Shown: positions 717-57,727 of the stretch, one piece after another | Numbering within the stretch: position 1 is the first letter of the stretch | Layout of the letters: each line of letters begins with the position of its first letter | Source: Escherichia phage vB_EcoP-101114UKE3 | Sequence record: NC_070982.1 | DNA length: 64,000 nt | Strand: one strand, 5' to 3' | Program-made: the position numbers and the translations under genes | Notes under the pieces: model-generated | Seen by the model: only the letters and a program-made list of their open reading frames with translations | What the model was told of the DNA's origin: nothing | Database searches by the model: none

Positions 717-2864
717 ATGTCTAGAGAACTAATGCCCAAATCTGGCATAATGATGCCTCATGTAGTTGTAACCAGAGATGCGGCTGTTGTTGGCGTTTCT
801 ACTGTAGATGGGGCCGCTGGTGCTATCAACTTAACAGAAAAATACCTTCAGAAATCTGACGCTGAAGCAACCTATCAAACGAAAGCAGAAGGGGCTACTA
901 AGCAATATGTAACCGACGCTATCAACCCCATTATGACAAATGCTCTTTTTAAAGATGACCCCTTTGTTAATAATGACACACCTATTCGCTCTGGCGGTGG
1001 TAATGGTGTTGAATCGGTAGATATGATTAAAGTCACCCCTGAGAACACCATCAAACTAGGGAGCTATGCTTCTTCTGTTCAGGGGGTTGAGATTCATTCT
1101 GCTGGTCGTCTTCAGGTTGTTGATCAGAATGATAGTGGTGTAGAAACTAAATACCCTGTGTATTCTAAGCGCTATCGTCCTGAGATTGAAGATTTACCTT
1201 TTGCTGCAATCGGTTCTTATGTTAAGGATTCAAAAGGTCGTACTGTTGGTGTAACCCGTACCGGTATCAACTCTGATATCAAACAACTTACACAGAAAGT
1301 CACTTTTACTCAACCTGTAACCGTAGCCGATGCTGTAGGCGATTATGATGCAGTGACACTGAGACAGCTTCGTAACAGTGGTGGTGGTTCTGGAGGTCCT
1401 ACCATGAGTGGTATCTCGAACTTTGGTATCGGTGATTTCCACTTACGCGATAGTCGTGCTTTTATCCCAGCTTTTGAAGTAGTGTCTGATGGTCAGCTTT
1501 TGAATCGTGCTGATTATCCAGATTTGTGGGCTTATGCTCAACTGCTATCTCCAATCGAGGATTCTCTTTGGTTATCTAACATCTACCAGAGGGGTAAATA
1601 CTCTACGGGTAACGGTACAACGACTTTCCGTGTTCCTGACCGAAATGGTATTCAAGAAGGGTCTCTGAAAGCTCTGTATGGTCGTGGTGATGGTGGAGCT
1701 TCGGCTGCTAATGGTCAAATATTTGATTCTGCTGCTCCTAACATTTATGGAGATATTGGTGGTGTTGTTGCTTATGGCCAGACTGGAGCTATTCTACGAG
1801 GTCAAGAGGAACAACCTCTCGCCCCTCAACCTTCAACTGGAAATGGTGTCTTGAGAGTTAGTTTAGACGCCTCAAAAGCAAGTCCTGTATATGGTCGTTC
1901 CACCGATGAAATCCTAACCCGTAACTTTGTTGGTGTTTGGACTATTCGTGCTCATGGTGGTTTTACTGCTGCTAATACTTCTTGGTCTGTTGTTAACAGT
2001 GACACAAATCGTCCTCCTAAAGGAACTAAAGCTTCTAGCGGTTCTGTTGTTGCTGAATATAAAATTGGTTCAGAAGTAGAGGCTTCTACTACGCTCCAAA
2101 CTGATGCTTATATCGACGGAGCTTATTATGGGATTATCAATGTTTATAATAAAACCAAAGGAGTTACCAAGCAATTAGCTTTTGACGATTCTGGAACCCT
2201 GAACTCTGATAGATATGTTGCTCGGTTTGGGACATTGATGTCTTGGAGTGAAACAGGAAGTCGCAGAGGGACGTTTTCTACAGACAACCAAGGGATCGGT
2301 GCTAACTACTCTTTTAACTCTATACTGAGTGCTTCCCAAGCATCCCAAGGTGGATACAAAACTACTACCCATGTAGGGATGATTCACAATGATGCTGGAA
2401 CTTTTGCTGATTCTTGTTGGCACGTAGCTGGGGATGAAGATAACAAGTATGGTTGTCGTTTAACTCTTCGACCAAACAGAAATGAGATTTATTACTACAC
2501 TTGGCAGCCAAGTTCAACCGGAACTTATACTCTTGCTATGAATCCTGTATCTGATGAAAAGTTGAAACATAACATCCAAGATATCTCTCCTGATGAAGCA
2601 ATTCGTGCGATAAAAGGTTTGGATTTCAAATCGTTTGTGTACAACAATGATAATCAAGGAAGAACTCGTCGTGGTATCATTGCACAGCAGGCAGAGAAAG
2701 TTGAACCTCTTTATGTTAAAACTCGTAAATTCCATGACAACGATGGGGTAGAGCAGGAACAGAAAGAGTTGGATGCAACTCCAATGCTTTTAGATACCAT
2801 GCAGGTTGTTCAAGATCTGCTGAAGCGTATTGAAGTTCTAGAAGCGAAGTTAGCAGAGAAGTGA
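717..2864 (+). CDS. tail fibre/tailspike with C-terminal intramolecular chaperone (peptidase S74-like) domain
   Basis: ATG 717 with AAGGAG SD (track start 579 lies upstream of hairpin); C-terminus VSDEKLKHNIQDISPDEAIRAIKGLDFKSF matches the S-D-x-x-L-K-x-N-I autocleavage motif of endosialidase/L-shaped fibre chaperone domains. Confidence 0.8.
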   Translation: MSRELMPKSGIMMPHVVVTRDAAVVGVSTVDGAAGAINLTEKYLQKSDAEATYQTKAEGATKQYVTDAINPIMTNALFKDDPFVNNDTPIRSGGGNGVESVDMIKVTPENTIKLGSYASSVQGVEIHSAGRLQVVDQNDSGVETKYPVYSKRYRPEIEDLPFAAIGSYVKDSKGRTVGVTRTGINSDIKQLTQKVTFTQPVTVADAVGDYDAVTLRQLRNSGGGSGGPTMSGISNFGIGDFHLRDSRAFIPAFEVVSDGQLLNRADYPDLWAYAQLLSPIEDSLWLSNIYQRGKYSTGNGTTTFRVPDRNGIQEGSLKALYGRGDGGASAANGQIFDSAAPNIYGDIGGVVAYGQTGAILRGQEEQPLAPQPSTGNGVLRVSLDASKASPVYGRSTDEILTRNFVGVWTIRAHGGFTAANTSWSVVNSDTNRPPKGTKASSGSVVAEYKIGSEVEASTTLQTDAYIDGAYYGIINVYNKTKGVTKQLAFDDSGTLNSDRYVARFGTLMSWSETGSRRGTFSTDNQGIGANYSFNSILSASQASQGGYKTTTHVGMIHNDAGTFADSCWHVAGDEDNKYGCRLTLRPNRNEIYYYTWQPSSTGTYTLAMNPVSDEKLKHNIQDISPDEAIRAIKGLDFKSFVYNNDNQGRTRRGIIAQQAEKVEPLYVKTRKFHDNDGVEQEQKELDATPMLLDTMQVVQDLLKRIEVLEAKLAEK

Positions 2865-2869
2865 GATAA

Positions 2870-2887
2870 GCCCCTTCGGGGGCTTTT
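2870..2887 (+). terminator. GC hairpin with TTCG loop plus T-run
   Basis: gcccc-ttcg-ggggc then tttt immediately after fibre stop. Confidence 0.45.
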
Positions 2888-2953
2888 AGGAGTGAAACTG
2901 GTGAATAAGTAATGAAACTACTATATCCAAAAGGAAAATGAAAGGAGAAGAAA

Positions 2954-3172
2954 ATGAAAATGATGAAACAGGTAACTTATGGTCTAGCTTGCTTAGGGAC
3001 AGGTTTTGTGATTTCCACAGCAGTACCTGTAAATGCAGTAGGCTCTCATTCTATTATAGAAGCTCCTGTAGAGAAGCTTAGTTCTCAATGTAAACAAAGG
3101 ACCATTCAAAATAATTTGGTTGTTATTTGCCCAGACGCTCAATCTTCAGCTCTGAGAAAAATTCTTCCTTAA
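2954..3172 (+). CDS. small membrane/secreted protein (holin candidate)
   Basis: SD aaaggag; N-terminal hydrophobic segment VTYGLACLGTGFVISTAVPV; immediately upstream of lysozyme. Confidence 0.35.
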   Translation: MKMMKQVTYGLACLGTGFVISTAVPVNAVGSHSIIEAPVEKLSSQCKQRTIQNNLVVICPDAQSSALRKILP

Positions 3173-3205
3173 TTGACCTAAAATAACAACAAAAGGAGGT
3201 CAAAG

Positions 3206-3697
3206 ATGGACGCTATCGCATTGCCGCCTATACAGATGAGCCTAAGTCCGGCTGGTATGGAGTTTATCATGAAGCATGAAGGCATGAGAACTAAAGCCTA
3301 TAAAGACTCCGCTGGAATCTGGACTATATGTGTAGGGGCTACGCGCGATATGAATGGGTATCCAGTAAGACAAGGATTAACGTATTCTATAGAGGATTGT
3401 CTAGCTCTGCTAGATAGAGACACACAAGACTCTGTTCGTGCTACTCAGAAAAACATAAGAGTTCCTATGCTAGCTCATGAATTTGATGCTGTCACTTCTT
3501 TCAACTTTAATGTTGGTGGTGGTGCTTTGTCAGCTTCAAAACTTAGGAAAGTGATCAACGGAGATGTGAAGGGTGATGTTTACTCAGAGTTCTTACGTTG
3601 GGATAAGATAACTGTTAAAGGTGTAAAGCAGCGGAGTCCGGGACTTCACAATCGCAGGGTTGCAGAAGCAAATCTATACACTACAGGAAAATATTAA
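3206..3697 (+). CDS. lysozyme (GH24 muramidase, endolysin)
   Basis: HEGMRTKAYKDSAGIWTICVGAT motif typical of T4/lambda-type lysozymes; SD aaggagg. Confidence 0.8.
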   Translation: MDAIALPPIQMSLSPAGMEFIMKHEGMRTKAYKDSAGIWTICVGATRDMNGYPVRQGLTYSIEDCLALLDRDTQDSVRATQKNIRVPMLAHEFDAVTSFNFNVGGGALSASKLRKVINGDVKGDVYSEFLRWDKITVKGVKQRSPGLHNRRVAEANLYTTGKY

Positions 3698-3709
3698 TGG
3701 AGGTGCCTT

Positions 3710-4513
3710 TTGGCTATCGAAACAACTGCGGTAGTTACTACCGATTTAAACCCCCTATACCCACGGGACAGGGATTATCTTTATGAAGGGGCTGCCCAGA
3801 TACGACTGGTCAAACAAGTATTAATTAACACCTTTCCTAACATCACAGAGCCAGTTCAACTTGACTCAGATTCTTTCAACATCTTAGCAAACAAGGTTTC
3901 CTTTACTGGAGATTCTATGGATGTTGGAGGTTTGATGATCAAAAACTTAACTCCGGGAACTGGTGATAAAGATGCTGTAACCAAAGGTCAGATGGAAGCT
4001 TTCATGTTAAACTGGATGCAGAATAAACTCTATCGTATTGGGGCTTACTATATCACTGAAGAAGATATCAACCCCGGAGATTCTAGCTCTCTTGGTTTTG
4101 GTTCTTGGGCTAAAGTAACTGGTGTTGTTATGGGTACTGGTGTTGTTAACCCTGATGGCTCTGTTCCTAATGCTCAGCGTGTAGAGTTCCAAGCAGGTGG
4201 TACTGGTGGTCGTGTATTTAACACAATTCGTGCTGACAACATGCCTCTGACTACAATCAATGGTTCTAGTTTTCAAGTTAGTTCTTATTCTCACTCACAT
4301 AATATCACAATGGGTCGTGGAGATGCTAGTGGTCACAACAGCAGTCCTAATTGGTATAGTCCGGGTGGTGGTTATACTCAGGTAACTGACACTAACACCC
4401 ACTCTCACTCAATTACAGGTTCTGTTAGTTTTGGACGTGATGATGTATCGAGACAACCCATCAACACTTTGCCGCCTTTCAGAGCAGCGCATATCTGGAG
4501 ACGTATTAGCTAA
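3710..4513 (+). CDS. tail fibre protein with HxH repeats; probable TTG start
   Basis: In-frame stop at 3695-3697 leaves TTG 3710 as only start, GGAGG SD 6 nt upstream; SHSHNIT and THSHSIT motifs resemble metal-binding HxH repeats of fibre tips. Confidence 0.5.
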   Translation: MAIETTAVVTTDLNPLYPRDRDYLYEGAAQIRLVKQVLINTFPNITEPVQLDSDSFNILANKVSFTGDSMDVGGLMIKNLTPGTGDKDAVTKGQMEAFMLNWMQNKLYRIGAYYITEEDINPGDSSSLGFGSWAKVTGVVMGTGVVNPDGSVPNAQRVEFQAGGTGGRVFNTIRADNMPLTTINGSSFQVSSYSHSHNITMGRGDASGHNSSPNWYSPGGGYTQVTDTNTHSHSITGSVSFGRDDVSRQPINTLPPFRAAHIWRRIS

Positions 4514-4522
4514 GGAGGAACT

Positions 4523-7500
4523 ATGGCGCTTTATCCAATAAAATCTTTAGGGGCTGTAGGGGTTATTGCTGACCAAGCTCCGACTGATTTAGCACCTAAT
4601 GCTTTCACTAATGCTATCAATGCCCGCTTTGTAGAGCAAAGAGTTTTTAAGACGGGGGGCAATGCCCCTCTTTCTTATGTAGAAGAAGATAAAGAGATTA
4701 CACCACTTTCTTTTATATCAATGCCTTTTGACTACTATAGTGCAGGTAATAGCTTTCTGATTGTTGGTACAGACAAAAAGCTATACAAGCTAACAGATGA
4801 AAGTTTGACAGATATTAGCCGAAAGGTTGCTACTGTCACAAAAAGAGCTTCCGCTTCTATTAAGATATATCCGGTTGTTTCTCAGATTGTTCCTAAAGAA
4901 ACTTCTATTTCAATGAATTTCAATCAAACTAAAACCTTGGAAGTTTCTATTCTTCCTGAAGATGCTAATAACACAGCTTTAGTTTGGGAGGTTAGTAATT
5001 CTTCTTATGGTAAAGTAGAAGCTGACACCGAGAACCCTAAAACTGCAACCTTGACGTCTTATGAAAAAGAAGGGAATTTAGTAGTTACTGTATCAACAGC
5101 TGATAAATCTATTAGTGCTCAGATTGCAGTAAACATCATAGATGGTGATTCTGGTATCTTCTTAAGTCAGGATACAATAACTGTCCGCAAAGGTGGTAAC
5201 ACAACACTAACTGCTGTTACTGGAAAAACTCCTGTAACTTGGGTCTCTAGTAATGCTTCTGTTGTGTCTGTAACACCTAATGCTAATACACTGACAGCTA
5301 CTTTGTCTGCTAATGGTGAGGGTACTGTAACAATAACTGCTGATAACGGAACTAAGAGTGCTTCTTGTCAAATTACTGTTATACCTCAGATAGACAGTAT
5401 CACTCTGAGTCAGACAAGCGTTCAAATGAGCAGGGGTACTCAGTATGTTTTAACTGCTACGGTTAATCCTTCAGATGCTCCCAATAAAAGCATAACTTGG
5501 ACTTCCTCTAATCCTGCCATTGCCACAGTTTCTGGAAATAGTACAGAAGCGGTAATAACAGGGTTACTAGCTGGGTTTACTGAAATCACAGCTGTTACTC
5601 AAGAGGGTGATAGATCAGCAACCTGTACAGTGAGAGTTGATTTAGCTGGGAGAATGATGCGAACTTCTGCAATGGCTTTATCAGAACCTGTTGTAGATTC
5701 TATACAAGAAGAAGAAACCAATAATACTCCTATCGAATCAGAAGAGGTTTTATATTTTGTTAATGAGCCATCTGGAGTTGATACCTCAGGGATGTATGAA
5801 GGTAACAACTTCTATGATTACTCAAACGTCAATGATATGGAAGGTTTTGCACGAGCTGCACTTATGTCCAGCGATACTCCGTTGCAATCTTTATCACTAG
5901 ATATCATCGATGCCTCTCTTGATGTTGGGGAAGATATTGTAATTACAGCCAATGCTTTGCCTGAGGGAGAGTATTTCTATCAGTGGACAGTGGACAAAGC
6001 AGGATATGTTTCAACCACATCTACTACCGGGAAATCTCTAAAACTGACAGCTATTCGTAAAGGTGAGATCAAAGTTACTTGTACTGCTAGTCAAATGACT
6101 CAGAAAGATTATGATGCTTTTGACGACTATCCTTGGTATCACACCATAATCTCTAACTGTGCAGTGGCTACCACTCACTATGAAACACCACAGGTCAAAG
6201 AATTTGAATCTGAGTATTTCGTAGATCTTCCGGGATGGGGTGAGCAAACAGTCGTTGATAATGATGGCAACCCTTCTGTTAAGAAATTTAACTGGAAGTG
6301 TGAGCGTATTCGTGCATTCAACAACAGACTTTTTGCTCTGAATATGAGGGAATCTAATGCATCTGGTGTAACTACTCACTACCCTCTAAGACTTCGGTGG
6401 TCGAATTTCGCTAACGAAAACAAAGCTCCATCTCTTTGGGATGATTATGCTTATGATCGTTTAACAACTTCAGACCTATCAGCAAACATTGTTGGTCAAA
6501 CTGAGGCTTTGGAAAATGGGTACGCTGGGTATATAGATTTAGCAGATTCTAACGGAAGCTTGATTGATGTACTTCCTCTGAAAGATTACCTTTTTGTTTA
6601 CACGGAGTTCGAAACCTACATTGGTTCTCCAACCAATAACACATATCAGCCTCTTATGTTTAAGAAGCTGTTTAATGACTCTGGCATACTTGCTCCTGAG
6701 TGTGCAGTTGAAGTCGAAGGTGGACACTTCGTAGTAACTCAAAATGATGTGATCTTACACAATGGTGCATCTAAAAAATCTATAGCATCTAACCGAGTCA
6801 AGAATCTTCTCATTAATGAGATCTGTCTAGTAAACCCTCTAGCTACTAGAGTTCACCTACACCAAGACAAGAAAGAGGTTTGGGTTTTATATGTAGGTCC
6901 GGGAGAGCCTAAAGAGAGTTTTGCTTGTAATAAAGCCGCTGTTTGGAATTATGAGTTTGACACTTGGTCTTTCCGTACAATACCATATGCTCAGTGTATT
7001 GGGTTAGTCGATCCACCAGTTCTTGAGAGAGGTCCAATCTGGGCAGATTTTCAAGAGATCACTTGGGATGATCCCTCTATTAACCAATTAGTCTGGAGAA
7101 AGGATGCTAATAACTTCCGTCAAAGGATTACAATAGTTGGCTCTTTCCTGAAAGGATTCTATCAAGTGGATGTTGGTGCTCTGGATTACATCTATGATAG
7201 AACCAACGATAGGATTATAGAAAAACCTTTAGAAATGAGGCTAGAAAGAACTGGTATTGATTTTGATAGTGTCACTAACGAGTGGAATCAAAAACATATT
7301 AATAGATTTAGACCTCAAGTCACTGGTACGGGTACCTATACTTTTGAAGTCGGTGGAAGTCAATTCTCAAACGAGTATGGACATAATCACTCAACTAAAG
7401 AGTTTAGGGTAGGCTCAGATCGTCATGTATCCGTGAGACTGAACCATCCATACCTATTCTATAATGTTATAGATAATGATGTTAACAGTAATGCTTCTAT

Positions 7501-50079: not shown

Positions 50080-50243
50080 AACTTCTCCTGTTTGTCACAT
50101 TGATTGGTTAGCCAGTTGTAAGACCCACTGTTGTTCTTGCTTAACTCGCAAGATGCAAAAGAGTACATCCTGACAAACCCCACAGTGGCTAAGCAAATAA
50201 AGATTGCTGCCAATAAGAATTTAGCTTTCAACTTATTATCCAT
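50076..50243 (-). CDS. small membrane/secreted protein (55 aa), not in ORF track
   Basis: MDNKLKAKFLLAAIFICLATVGFV...; GAGG SD; stop overlaps next ATG. Confidence 0.35.
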   Translation of the reverse strand: MDNKLKAKFLLAAIFICLATVGFVRMYSFASCELSKNNSGSYNWLTNQCDKQEKL

Positions 50244-50446
50244 ACAACCTCTTCTTTGAGCTTAAAAAAGGACTCTCCTAAGAGAGCCAAGCTTTAAGGC
50301 CAATTAAATAGATATCACCCAATATCTGTGGATAACCTGCTCTTAAAATATTCTATCCGACGGATGTTCGAGGATTATTCCTCTCCCTAGCATCGGCCCC
50401 ATACGGGAAAGATTAAATTAAGTTTAGGTTAGTTGAGCCAGAATAG

Positions 50447-50489
50447 CTCACATAGCCCTCTGATACTCACAAGGGCTATAGATGTTACT
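50447..50489 (-). repeat. conserved hairpin element, copy A
   Basis: CACATAGCCCTCTGATACTCACAAGGGCTATAG directly after stop codon; 8-bp stem, 12-nt loop; near-identical copy at 56084-56130. Confidence 0.5.
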
Positions 50490-50733
50490 CTGTGGCTCCG
50501 TCGAATCGGAGGATTGCTGCTGGAACAGGGTATGCTTCCAGATCTTCATCCAGTCGGTATAGATGCCCTGTACTTAAATTTACAGCTGTTACTGGCTTAG
50601 AGTGGCCTCCAGCCTGTATGGAAGGAACTCTGATAAAGAACTCTTCTGGATATTCAACAGAGTGGAACACACTTCCTGAATAAAGATCTTTTATTTTAGA
50701 AGTTTGTTTAGGAGTTTTATCAGCAATTTTCAT
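50485..50733 (-). CDS. small protein, five-member paralog family
   Basis: L-x-x-G-[DS]-x-F ... V-x-L-S-x-G pattern shared with 51854, 52124, 54939, 56130 ORFs. Confidence 0.45.
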   Translation of the reverse strand: MKIADKTPKQTSKIKDLYSGSVFHSVEYPEEFFIRVPSIQAGGHSKPVTAVNLSTGHLYRLDEDLEAYPVPAAILRFDGATE

Positions 50734-53740: not shown

Positions 53741-53816
53741 TGGTGCGCCCTACAGGACTCGAACCTGTAACCAATAGCTTAGAAGGCTACTGCTCTATCC
53801 GTTGAGCTAAGAGCGC
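53741..53816 (-). tRNA. tRNA-Arg(UCU): tRNA-Arg (anticodon UCU), CCA encoded
   Basis: hand-folded cloverleaf: 7-bp acceptor, D arm GCTC/GAGC, anticodon loop CTTCTAA, T arm ACAGG-TTCGAGT-CCTGT, discriminator A plus CCA. Confidence 0.85.
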
Positions 53817-54942: not shown

Positions 54943-55190
54943 GGCGCTTTAATCTCAATCTGAACGTTGACGACGAATACAGTATGGTTTGCACTGTACA
55001 CTGAAGTGCCTATGATTGGCTTATCATCACTGAGGATTTCAACAGCGTGCTCAAGGTTAATCTTCAGATGAAGACGCCCTGATTCCATGAAGAAATCACC
55101 AGCACGTATCTCACCGAACTTAGCTGGCACACCGATAGAGGGTATCAGTATGTCAGTGCGACCTTTACGGTCAAATAAACGATTGAACAT
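54939..55190 (-). CDS. small protein, five-member paralog family
   Basis: IRAGDFFMESGRLHLKIN. Confidence 0.45.
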   Translation of the reverse strand: MFNRLFDRKGRTDILIPSIGVPAKFGEIRAGDFFMESGRLHLKINLEHAVEILSDDKPIIGTSVYSANHTVFVVNVQIEIKAP

Positions 55191-55199
55191 ATCACCCCC

Positions 55200-55409
55200 T
55201 TATGTAATATCAACCTCAAACCAACAGGTAAGAGCTTTTTCATTGTTGCGTTTTGGCTCAAAGGATTTAACAACCGATAACACTCGGCGCTGTTCTCCAT
55301 CAAACCAGATAGTTTCATCTTTTTCAGGGAGTAGGTTGTGTGCAGCACAAACAATCTCACCTAGTACAACCTGTCTGCCATCTTGCTTACGAACTAAACG
55401 AATGTTCAT
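55200..55409 (-). CDS. small hypothetical protein
   Basis: start MNIRLV after terminator hairpin. Confidence 0.35.
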   Translation of the reverse strand: MNIRLVRKQDGRQVVLGEIVCAAHNLLPEKDETIWFDGEQRRVLSVVKSFEPKRNNEKALTCWFEVDIT

Positions 55410-55452
55410 AACAACCTCTCTTGTTAGTTTAAGTAAGAGTTGTCCCTTAATT

Positions 55453-55483
55453 AAAACAACAAAGGCCACCCCTAAGGGCAGCC
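55453..55483 (-). terminator. intrinsic terminator
   Basis: minus-strand ggcugccc-uuag-ggguggcc with two G-U pairs (C-A on plus strand), then U-rich run. Confidence 0.5.
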
Positions 55484-55489
55484 TCTTAT

Positions 55490-55693
55490 TTAAGCGCAAG
55501 CACTACGCAGTTTGTTATTCAAGAAGCGATCTTCTGCATTATACAGGAATGCATAGAACAACTCTTTTGCTACATCCCGATCGCAATTGAGACATTTAGA
55601 GATCTGTAACAACAAACCATCACGACTATTAGGATGGTCAATTATCGCAAGACGAATAATCTCACGAATACCAATGTCATGCTCAGCCGCCAT
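55490..55693 (-). CDS. small hypothetical protein
   Basis: 67-aa ORF. Confidence 0.35.
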   Translation of the reverse strand: MAAEHDIGIREIIRLAIIDHPNSRDGLLLQISKCLNCDRDVAKELFYAFLYNAEDRFLNNKLRSACA

Positions 55694-56083
55694 AGAACCA
55701 ATCACCCTGACGTTTACGAATGTTAGTTGTCAGACGAAGCATGGCAGACTCAATCTTCAGAGCACCATTTGCTACTGCATCCATACGTTCAGGACGGTTC
55801 ATACGTTTGGTTGTCTTTTTCATAATGTTCTCTCTTTATTGATGGAGGCAGGATTGCCAGTTAATATAAAGGGAAGCCCTACACGTTAAGACTTCCGCTT
55901 GTACAAACTGTCGAGAACTCTCTACCCCTAGATTGTTCTCTATCCCAAACCGATACATACCCCTACATATCGGAAAGCTGTTCGAAAATTAACAGGTTTT
56001 AGTCTATCACCGGATGTTTGAGACAAGTCTCGCCCTAGCGGTGAGCCATATGGCGTTGAGATTATAGTTAATTGAGGAACACC

Positions 56084-56130
56084 CTCACATAGCCCTCTGA
56101 TAAACACAAGGGCTATAAGTCGATGTTACT
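56084..56130 (-). repeat. conserved hairpin element, copy B
   Basis: CACATAGCCCTCTGATAAACACAAGGGCTATAAG directly after stop of 56130..56360. Confidence 0.5.
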
Positions 56131-56360
56131 TAACCATTAATATGAGTTACTTGAACATCAGGTACAGGGATAACTTCATGGTCTTCCTGTAATTGGAACA
56201 GTGTCCCCTGACTAAGACCAACCACACGATGCATATCGTTAAGTCTAGTGTCTGTCTTTAGGTAGACATTTTCAGAGTTAGTTGGTAAACGGAACACATC
56301 GCCCGGACGTAACTCACTGAGCTTTTTAGTAACAACTACAGAGAAGAGATTAATTTTCAT
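56130..56360 (-). CDS. small protein, five-member paralog family
   Basis: LRPGDVFRLPTNSENVYLKT ... VVGLSQGTLFQLQED. Confidence 0.45.
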   Translation of the reverse strand: MKINLFSVVVTKKLSELRPGDVFRLPTNSENVYLKTDTRLNDMHRVVGLSQGTLFQLQEDHEVIPVPDVQVTHING

Positions 56361-56533
56361 TTGATTAACACCAAATCAGTACGACGTTCGAAGGAAGGGG
56401 AGGATTCACCATTCCACTGAACAAGATAACAGAGAACACCATCAATCGTTGTTCTCCGACGAATAACACCTGTAACAGTTCCACCAACAAGACGAACGGT
56501 GTCGCCAACGGTAAATTTAACCTTTGAGCGCAT
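56357..56533 (-). CDS. small hypothetical protein
   Basis: start MRSKVKF with AGGAG SD. Confidence 0.35.
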   Translation of the reverse strand: MRSKVKFTVGDTVRLVGGTVTGVIRRRTTIDGVLCYLVQWNGESSPSFERRTDLVLIK

Positions 56534-56822
56534 CTCCTGTTTCCTCATTCTGGCGTTTAATTTCTTCAGTGAGTTGCTTATTAAGATCTTGAATACGCTT
56601 AATCTCCCAACCCAAAGAAGCCAAACGATCGTTACGTGCTTCGATTTGTTCCTGCATTTTAAGTAATTTGGAACGAACATCAGCATTAAAAACTTCTTCT
56701 TGCTTAAGAAGGAACTCGTAACGACGCTTCCAGCTTGCTGATTTATTTCTTAAAATAATAAACCCTAGAGTAGAAACCGTTACAGTGAGTACGAAAAGGA
56801 ACTTATAAACCTCTAAAGACAT
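56517..56822 (-). CDS. membrane-anchored coiled-coil protein
   Basis: N-terminal TM then helical E/K-rich region. Confidence 0.4.
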   Translation of the reverse strand: MSLEVYKFLFVLTVTVSTLGFIILRNKSASWKRRYEFLLKQEEVFNADVRSKLLKMQEQIEARNDRLASLGWEIKRIQDLNKQLTEEIKRQNEETGDALKG

Positions 56823-57023
56823 ATCTTTATCCTCTTAAAGTAAGATATTATAAGAAATATTATTTAGAATTTATTATTTCTAAACTTAATTCCTATCAAT
56901 AATTTTCAGAGGTCTATATACAGTCATTACCTCTGGTCCCAAATCACTTCCACTTTTTACAGAGAAAATCATAAGTGTGTGATTTATAAGGAAATTTAGT
57001 TTGTCAATATTGGCACTTATGAA

Positions 57024-57410
57024 TCAGTCACGGGAGCTGTTATTGAACACTAAATCACCACAATACATCGGATTGGTATACCACTTTGGCACCCCTTCGC
57101 TCTTACTCTGAAAGTATGTACCGCTGTACAAAGGCACATAACCTTTCTTCAGTGCACGCCTTGCAAGCCGCTCGCTCTCTCTGATTGATTTCTTTATCAG
57201 AGGGTTATCATCACGAATTAGCTTTACATAACGCTTAAAAGGTTTCTCCTTCTTTAATAGGACGGGTATCCACTCGAACTGGTTTCGTTGATTTATAACC
57301 TGCTCGGCAGTCAGTTTTCGTTGTGACATTCTGTTTATTACGGTATCCGCTACTAATGCTTTGCAAGCGGTTGGCTGATTCCCTGCCTCATAATAAATAG
57401 TCAATGTCAA
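57024..57410 (-). CDS. SleB/CwlJ-like cell-wall hydrolase domain protein
   Basis: IYYEAGNQPTACKALVADTVINR matches IYAEARGEP..AV..V.NR core motif. Confidence 0.5.
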   Translation of the reverse strand: MTLTIYYEAGNQPTACKALVADTVINRMSQRKLTAEQVINQRNQFEWIPVLLKKEKPFKRYVKLIRDDNPLIKKSIRESERLARRALKKGYVPLYSGTYFQSKSEGVPKWYTNPMYCGDLVFNNSSRD

Positions 57411-57462
57411 AAGTAGCTGGGCTGTCGTTATCAGAACTTACTACCCCCTTGTTTTACGGGCA

Positions 57463-57489
57463 TAAAAAAGCCCCATCCGAAGACGGGGC
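57463..57489 (-). terminator. intrinsic terminator (TTCG hairpin plus U6)
   Basis: minus-strand gccccguc-uucg-gauggggc (G-U only on this strand) then uuuuuu. Confidence 0.55.
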
Positions 57490-57727
57490 GACCTGAAAGA
57501 GTGAACATGACCTCACTCATTTAAGAATCCTCGTAAAGACTCTTAAAAAAGAGGCCTCGTTAAAGGCCCGGTCAAATGACCATCCAATAGGGATTGAACC
57601 ATGCCAATGATTCACAAAGGGAGTTCCCTTTAGGTATCACTAGCTACGCAAAAAGCCGCACAAAGGCGGCAGACAAAGACGCTCAAGAAGAGCGTCATAG
57701 TAGTTGACCACTGGTCCAGAAGAGGGC

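Follow-up and report, generated by a model that had tools for sequence, protein, structure and literature searches.

The subject of this study is a conserved non-coding element in a stretch of 64,000 nucleotides (hereafter the window) of Escherichia phage vB_EcoP-101114UKE3 (NC_070982.1). An original prediction, made from the letters alone, had flagged positions 55950-56130 as the second copy (copy B) of this element, consisting of a hairpin after a stop codon and a downstream conserved block, and had proposed that a TATAAT hexamer within it could mark a transcription start. We found that the flagged stretch is the middle of a multi-helix RNA of ~290 nt encoded on the minus strand (~55845-56130), and we are highly confident that it encodes a folded, conserved RNA domain rather than a promoter. 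An element was correctly recognized at this place, although its extent had been drawn too short, since the conserved structure continues from ~56130 to ~55845. Based on sequence comparison we tentatively favour, with a probability of about 0.4, a role as a cis-acting module of the early transcript, the invariant loop of which would recruit a protein or the polymerase, and which would control the processing of this transcript or its read-through to the following cistron.

The window belongs to a phiEco32-like coliphage podophage (Kuravirus/Suseptimavirus-type). From 55000 to 57500 its sequence agrees at 100% with that of Escherichia phage vB_EcoP-101114BS3, a phiEco32 relative, and shows 92-98% identity to the Suseptimavirus-type phages SU7, EK010, IME267 and ECBP2. 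All genes around copy B lie on the minus strand, which is also the functional strand of the element. The predicted hairpin string CACATAGCCCTCTGATAAACACAAGGGCTATAAG was recovered at 56086-56119 of the plus strand, after the stop of the open reading frame (ORF) 56130..56360 (minus strand), and the block given as GCTAGGG...ATAGA corresponds to GCTAGGGCGAGACTTGTCTCAAACATCCGGTGATAGA at 56003-56039 of the minus strand. The claimed relationship with another copy (copy A, ~50262-50490) proved to be real: both are copies of a conserved non-coding element, which begins with the hairpin following the stop codon. When copy B was compared with the window by BLAST, only the hairpin of copy A could be detected (47 nt, 87% identity, E 1e-10); the pattern GCTAGGG-N8-22-AACATCCG occurred exactly twice in the window against 0.00 expected occurrences (100 shuffles).

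The fold of copy B was obtained with RNAalifold from an unfitted MAFFT alignment of 17 copy-B sequences. It comprises 78 pairs in ~12 helices (Table 1), standard pairs fill 99.6% of the alignment cells, and 13 pairs carry compensatory changes; the observed covariation score was reached by none of 500 shuffles. As a control the partner columns were slid by 1-3 positions, and the pairing fell to 38-47%. The A-type alignment, which includes three sequences of phages resembling Salmonella phage 7-11, has 58 pairs, 10 of them with compensatory changes. Copies A and B have a common core and differ in their peripheral hairpins.

The conserved core comprises 52-56 nt: the mini-hairpin P2a (NNN-RUAU-NNN), the 6-bp helix P3, a 7x7 internal loop with the consensus 5'-CUAGGG(A/C) opposite (G/A)AACAUC-3', the hairpin P4 with a variable loop, and UAGA. 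In an alignment fitted to the covariance model, pairing is complete (100%) at each of the core's 14 pairs, 6 of which show compensatory changes. P3 has been fully rewritten by lineage (CCGAUG/CGUCGG in copy A, NCACCG/CGGUGN in copy B, UCGGUG/CGCCGA in 7-11 and AUAGCG/CGCUAU in a distant contig, L172, described below), while the letters of the loop are constant across the lineages except for a covarying pair adjoining P4. Among the unique cores this pair is A..G in 17, C..A in 11 and A..A in 2, and it is never C..G. Both main states were found within copy A and also within the 7-11-like phages, and in copy B the pair differs between the two groups; a reading of the lineages suggests that it was switched at least four times. 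A.G, A.A and C.A are isosteric and interchangeable in a trans Hoogsteen/sugar-edge (sheared) pair. Such a sheared-type pair, together with the adjacent G.A, G.A juxtapositions, suggests that the loop is closed by non-canonical pairs, and it would thus form a surface typical for specific protein recognition.

Matches to copy B were found in 97 phage records, all from E. coli or Shigella kuravirus-like phages, and matches to copy A in 101 phage records, 4 of which are Salmonella 7-11-like phages. When the 64-kb window is compared with the 90-kb genome of phage 7-11, only 12 DNA segments can still be aligned (10 protein-coding, 1 tRNA-Arg and 1 copy A), copy A being the sole non-coding, non-tRNA sequence among them. 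A covariance model built from copy A alone recovered every copy B (E 1e-5 to 1e-7) without any further match in 268 kb, thus there are exactly two copies per kuravirus genome. The combined A+B model detected one copy in phage 7-11 (69 bits), located between gp112 and the annotated terminator ahead of the endolysin gp111, and here the whole A-type element is recognizable (P1, AACCUAAUCUU, GGUUAUCCACAG and the terminator). No second copy was found in 7-11 near its homologue of phi32_112, the protein encoded behind copy B in the window, even when the search filters were switched off; the number obtained with the covariance model for 7-11-like phages is likewise one.

A stricter pattern, applied to IMG/VR, metagenomes and GTDB genomes, led to kuravirus-like and 7-11-like contigs and to one distant, unrelated phage-like contig, L172 (JBOFGJ010000684.1 of GTDB, 48.7 kb), which had been binned as a Flavobacterium metagenome-assembled genome; this binning may be wrong. 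Its core (54 bits) is located in an intergenic gap among small ORFs, after an unrelated hairpin. The same contig holds, at 1978-5668, at least six small paralogous ORFs each ending in ...(D/E)EENE. Pattern matches from soil, archaea and Pseudomonadales were discarded as chance (14-22 bits). In IMG/VR, among at least 120 matches to GCTAGGG-N8-22-AACATCCG the covariance model kept only known kuravirus/7-11 genomes, and a base-pairing screen gave the same outcome among at least 120 matches to TATG-N-CTAGGG-N-AACATC. Motifs of the type (C/G)UAGGG(G) are present three times in copy B (in the core loop at 56032-56038 and in the P5 and P6 loops within 55913-55973, minus strand); in copy A the core motif is accompanied by a UGGGUG loop, and L172 carries a CAGGGGUG loop in its 3' hairpin.

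When the whole window was searched against Rfam 15, tRNA alone passed the gathering thresholds, and at an E-value limit of 10 the overlaps with copies A and B were at chance level only; the closest Rfam small RNA (sRNA), STnc100, reached 21 bits against a threshold of 47. By eye we also considered and dropped the kink-turn, the sarcin-ricin/loop E consensus, the 11-nt GAAA receptor, the NAD+ (nadA) motif, the ykkC 'CUAGGG' motif, the T-box, a CsrA sponge, a CRISPR-repeat mimic (only a 7-nt GUGUUCC match) and boxA (GCUCU is confined to the terminator stem). The element is not mentioned in the literature searched, a search outside which two central phiEco32 papers (Savalia 2008, Pavlova 2012) lie.

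The perfect TATAAT of the original prediction is indeed present in copy B on the coding strand (56061-56066, minus strand). If the hairpin were the terminator-like end of the upstream gene, a sigma-70 promoter with this hexamer might open a new transcript behind it, and copy A has an AU-rich stretch with a weak -10-like hexamer at a similar place. Nevertheless this explanation is very improbable. Among the 17 aligned genomes TATAAT is confined to the Suseptimavirus-type group (CATAAT in TH42), while the kuraviruses read TATTAA or TATATC at the same position. No -35 box is present at 16-18 bp (the best candidates by eye match 1-2 of 6 positions), and the promoter scan called no site either in 55830-56135 of the minus strand or in the copy A element. 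The hexamer stands in a linker of the RNA fold, beside a long-range helix: the linker sequence AAUUAAC is complementary to GUUAAUU ~70 nt downstream (~55984-55990), a pairing that was recognized by eye and is conserved in part only. The AU-rich stretch of copy A that matches this linker is the 5' strand of helix P2 (UAACCU...CUUAA with UUAAG...AGGUUA), which closes the core domain and is kept into 7-11, and the 'TTTAAT' of copy A falls into a 3-nt group-specific insertion within this strand. Furthermore, conservation and covariation reach 200 nt beyond the needs of a promoter. As for a terminator role of P1, the hairpin is followed by GUGAGGGUGUUCC instead of a U-tract and is absent from the list of the terminator scan. 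The known arrangement nearest to the original prediction is the T4-type PeSL cassette, an early promoter plus a stem-loop between ORFs. As in that cassette, a repeated intergenic hairpin and an AT-rich hexamer are found at mosaic boundaries, but our element occurs only twice per genome, its hexamer lacks conservation, and what is conserved is a large, covarying RNA fold.

Table 1. Positions of the structural and sequence features of copies B and A in the window
Feature	Position	Strand	Remark
Copy B: stop codon TAA of ORF 56130..56360	56130..56132	-	conserved G-UAA-C starts directly 3' of the stop
Copy B: P1, interrupted 19-pair hairpin (hairpin of the original prediction)	56078..56127	-	99.7% paired; base AACAUC/GGUGUU, upper stem UAUAGCCCUUG/...AGGGCUAUG; pair 9/50 alternates C-G/U-G/U-A (17-copy alignment)
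Copy B: AU-rich linker with TATAAT (56061-56066)	56055..56077	-	
Copy B: P2a mini-hairpin GCC-AUAU-GGC	56045..56054	-	GGC/GCC in kuraviruses, CCC/GGG in copy A; 2/3 pairs compensatory
Copy B: core, P3 UCACCG/CGGUGA, 7x7 internal loop CUAGGGC / AAACAUC, P4 GAGA-CUUG-UCUC	56007..56044	-	
Copy B: conserved UAGA directly 3' of P3	56003..56006	-	
Copy B: small hairpin CUGUU-AAUUUUCG-AACAG	55978..55995	-	conservation poor
Copy B: P5 hairpin with G-rich loop, CCGAUAUGU-AGGGGU-AUGUAUCGG	55950..55973	-	9 pairs, 100% paired; 1 compensatory, 3 with one-sided changes
Copy B: P6 hairpin with G-rich loop UAGGGGUA	55913..55940	-	10 pairs, 3 compensatory
Copy B: P7 long hairpin closed by CAGUU/AACUG	55858..55910	-	helices 10 + 11, 6 compensatory pairs; 58-nt expansion in kuraviruses; inner part 55872-55896 with terminator-like score, yet poor U-tract
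Copy B: P8 mini-hairpin GGCA-AUCC-UGCC	55847..55858	-	invariant
Copy B: ribosome-binding site (RBS) AAAGAGAG and ATG of next gene (phi32_112 homologue, 46 aa, basic)	55821..55837	-	
Copy A: P1 hairpin	50441..50490	-	stop of upstream ORF is the UAA inside GAGUAAC
Copy A: core	50352..50407	-	77 bits; CCC-GUAU-GGG, P3 CCGAUG/CGUCGG, loop CUAGGGA / GAACAUC, P4 GAGGA-AUAA-UCCUC
Copy A: intrinsic terminator GGCUCUC-UUAG-GAGAGUCC then U6	50264..50288	-	

The position of the element relative to the genes is also characteristic. In 23 of the 32 instances across the genomes the stop codon of the upstream ORF is the UAA of a conserved G-UAA-C, and in the remaining instances it stands 3-8 nt before GUAAC (3 nt in our copy B). 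The upstream ORFs have at least six different lengths, yet conservation begins at the stop codon. The start of the RNA element therefore coincides exactly with mosaic gene boundaries, and a terminating ribosome would cover the 5' strand of P1. The UAA of G-UAA-C stands at the base of P1 at 56128-56130 in copy B and at 50486-50488 in copy A, and the same is seen at the surveyed loci L001-L018, L138 (phage 7-11) and L151. The upstream genes frequently, though not invariably, belong to one family of ~75-aa proteins. The minus-strand ORFs before copy B (56130-56360, 76 aa) and copy A (50485-50733, 82 aa) are paralogues with PHROGs 6570, 7832, 7431 and 8365 in common, and their homologues also precede the element in 7-11 (gp112), phiEco32 (gp113) and Paul; with a paralogous ORF before each copy, the duplicated unit may be the gene together with the RNA. 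The downstream genes vary: endolysin in 7-11, a small membrane protein after copy A of the window and phi32_112 after copy B. Pfam and PHROGs searches with the flanking proteins returned functionally uncharacterised families only. The phi32_112 homologue directly 3' of copy B (55683-55823, minus strand, 46 aa) is basic and has a KRMNRPERM...NGALK motif, its counterpart in 7-11 is gp135, and as an RNA-binding candidate it is speculative.

In MZ234015, an identical record, two 'hypothetical proteins' (101114BS3_094 and 101114BS3_095) are annotated over the RNA, at 55836-55958 and 55940-56107 of the minus strand, with sizes of 40 aa and 55 aa. Their frames are open only in the closest relatives and are truncated or frame-shifted elsewhere (1-, 2- and 58-nt indels), thus they are probably spurious calls. 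The RNA domain itself is unannotated in the 12 annotated records inspected (five more loci are without any annotation). The early operon also holds, in its part between the two copies, a tRNA-Arg(UCU) gene (53741-53816, minus strand), which aligns with the tRNA-Arg gene of 7-11 at 86% identity. A non-coding gap of ~320 nt (57411-57727) lies directly upstream of a cell-wall hydrolase gene (57024-57410); it contains a strong intrinsic terminator at 57489-57470 (minus strand, GCCCCGUC-UUCG-GAUGGGGC then U6), and the core model gave no match in this gap. In phage 7-11 (L138 42134-42844, 43011-43744) an unannotated gap of ~710 nt is found downstream of gp135, and upstream of the gap there are three mutually overlapping ORF calls, one of them labelled 'anti-termination protein Q-like'; the annotation around this gap looks unreliable.

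The coincidence of mosaic gene boundaries with the start of the element would also fit a conserved sequence that acts at the DNA level or as a pure processing signal, e.g. as a replication origin, a single-strand initiation (ssi) signal, a palindrome bound by a protein, a linker for recombination of gene modules, a plain RNase III site or a self-cleaving ribozyme. P1, with ~19 interrupted pairs, matches an RNase III substrate in size, two perfect DNA palindromes are present (GGCATATGCC and GCCATATGGC), and by our reading the G.A-type pairs by P4 resemble the stem II junction of the hammerhead. However, the folding energy of the minus-strand RNA is -90 kcal/mol (z -3.0) against -77.7 kcal/mol for its complement, i.e. 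the minus strand is 12 kcal/mol more stable through G-U pairs, and the RNA-specific tetraloops UUCG, UACG, CUUG and GAAA recur. Such an energy gap is expected if G-U pairs matter, and together with the tetraloops it argues for an RNA rather than a DNA structure. In copy A, P2a (CCCGTATGGG) does not form a DNA palindrome, the letters of the palindromes vary while the pairing stays, and no Rfam ribozyme match was obtained; these explanations are accordingly unlikely. A hammerhead ribozyme was considered separately and rejected: the loop reads CUAGGGN, the core CUGANGA and stem III are absent, and there is no Rfam hammerhead match. An RNase III site has about two turns of interrupted double-stranded RNA; in P1 as a candidate site, 19 pairs, broken by internal loops, extend over 50 nt. 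Conserved interrupted hairpins between cistrons of an early polycistronic mRNA made by the host polymerase are also known as the RNase III sites of T7. Unlike at those sites, P1 only opens a series of ~8 helices, and conservation is highest in the separate internal-loop core.

The two copies end differently. The 3' hairpin of copy A is an intrinsic terminator according to the terminator scan, and both copy A and the 7-11 copy have a strong, conserved intrinsic terminator at their end (7-8 bp then U6), the stem of which covaries. In the window the ATG of the next gene (50241-50243) stands 20 nt past the U-run, so expression of this gene needs read-through; in 7-11, too, 20 nt separate the terminator from the following start codon. 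The arrangement might be explained by a riboswitch-like attenuator, in which the core would be a small-ligand aptamer controlling the terminator downstream of copy A: the nucleotides of the internal loop are invariant between covarying helices, and the terminator immediately precedes the RBS of the next gene in copy A and 7-11. We regard this as improbable. No Rfam riboswitch was matched up to E 10, copy B has no good terminator, and the downstream genes are mutually unrelated. Nor is there, as judged by eye, a clearly conserved mutually exclusive pairing between core and terminator: the candidate AAGAGC/GCUCUU has 6 bp in the kuraviruses and 5 bp in the window, and has at most 4 bp or is absent in the 7-11-like phages.

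A processed, stable, trans-acting non-coding RNA, cut from the early polycistronic transcript by host RNases, deserves more weight. Here P1 would shield the 5' end and the terminator or P7 the 3' end, and the invariant loop might bind or sequester a host or phage protein, or single strands like GGUUAUCCACAG might base-pair. Several features of the sequence are in accord with it. The core is retained while both the upstream and the downstream genes change between phages, the paralogues have a common core with different peripheral hairpins, and the size of ~230-330 nt is typical of protein-binding RNAs. Copy A has a strong terminator, and the U-tract of the copy A-type terminators is complementary to the conserved UUUAAAG, with which the U-tail could pair. 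In addition, the tRNA co-transcribed in the same operon must be excised by host RNases too. On the other hand, the element lacks a conserved promoter, copy B reaches the next RBS without a clear terminator and with invariant sequence there, as in an mRNA leader, and no match to the element that would point to mimicry of ribosomal RNA was found in the E. coli rrnH operon. Intra-operonic and 3' untranslated region sRNAs and the T4 RNAs C and D would be comparable, being likewise promoterless, situated in a tRNA-yielding operon and protected by hairpins at their ends, although the present element has no similarity to Rfam sRNAs. The chance of such a processed RNA acting in trans is clearly less than even, but it comes close to that of the cis-acting module.

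According to the cis-acting reading, which we still prefer, the RNA domain would be transcribed by the host RNA polymerase within the leftward early operon. It opens with P1 at the stop codon of the upstream ORF, continues with the compact core and ends with the peripheral hairpins that extend to the next RBS. The almost invariant, probably non-Watson-Crick internal loop could serve as the docking site of a host or phage protein or of the elongating RNA polymerase, and we infer that the module might act in cis, setting how much transcription or stable mRNA passes on to the cistron that follows, with P1 and the 3' hairpin as the boundaries of a nuclease-resistant RNA.

Several observations weigh against this model. 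The 3' hairpin of copy B has a poor U-tract and is enclosed in a longer helix, thus terminator control is clear only for copy A and 7-11, and no conserved alternative (antiterminator) pairing was found by eye. Read-through at the strong terminator 57489-57470 cannot be explained by the element, since this terminator precedes copy B. In Cronobacter phage GAP52, a 7-11 relative, the core was not found in 30-76.6 kb, and the element would be dispensable in that lineage. The 14 pairs of the core, 6 of them compensatory, came from a model-fitted alignment. Finally, the independence from neighbouring genes, the hairpin-capped ends and the paralogues with unlike peripheries fit a trans-acting stable RNA equally well.

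Phages phiEco32 and 7-11 serve as models of sigma-factor switching, and their early operons extend over ~20 kb and cross several terminators; to our knowledge, no mechanism of read-through has been described for them. The authors of the 7-11 study considered an undefined antitermination strategy likely (PMC8948821), and the sigma-70 early promoters of SU10 and phiEco32 lie kilobases upstream (PMC4281155). A more specific proposal sees in the core (P2a, P3, the CUAGGGN/NAACAUC loop and P4) a phage RNA of a new class, through which the host RNA polymerase would become resistant to terminators. Such resistance would come from the core alone, similarly to a put RNA, or together with the basic protein phi32_112. 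We consider this proposal rather unlikely.

A close precedent would be the put RNAs (putL and putR) of coliphage HK022, two-stem RNAs of ~70 nt which bind the zinc-binding domain of beta' and suppress terminators in cis (PMC9378689). In HK022, too, there are two paralogous structured RNAs in the early units of a phage that depends on the host RNA polymerase, and their active part consists of two adjacent stem-loops with bulges or internal loops, resembling the core (PMC9378689). While put acts on terminator read-through, the same role is only proposed for our element. The put RNAs are ~70 nt long and stand just downstream of PL and PR, whereas the element is 230-330 nt long and stands kilobases from the early promoters; moreover, it starts at a stop codon, and copy A brings its own terminator. 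The likeness to put is thus one of description. A parallel can also be drawn with the nut sites (boxA/boxB) and the N protein of lambda, since both phages have two RNA sites in early operons, and N is encoded downstream of nutL as the basic 46-aa phi32_112 homologue is encoded directly downstream of copy B. Unlike nut, however, the element has neither a boxA nor a boxB sequence, and the parallel with N is weakened by 7-11, where the phi32_112 homologue is not beside the element, so that the link is a positional speculation.

The near-invariant loop, embedded between freely covarying helices, points to a specific partner, and it offers a concrete handle on early gene control or host takeover in phiEco32-like phages. 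With this element a well-supported candidate family, matching no described RNA family in Rfam, is added to the catalogue of structured phage RNAs. A core that did confer terminator resistance on the host polymerase would represent the 'undefined antitermination strategy' put forward for phiEco32-like phages in the 7-11 transcription study.

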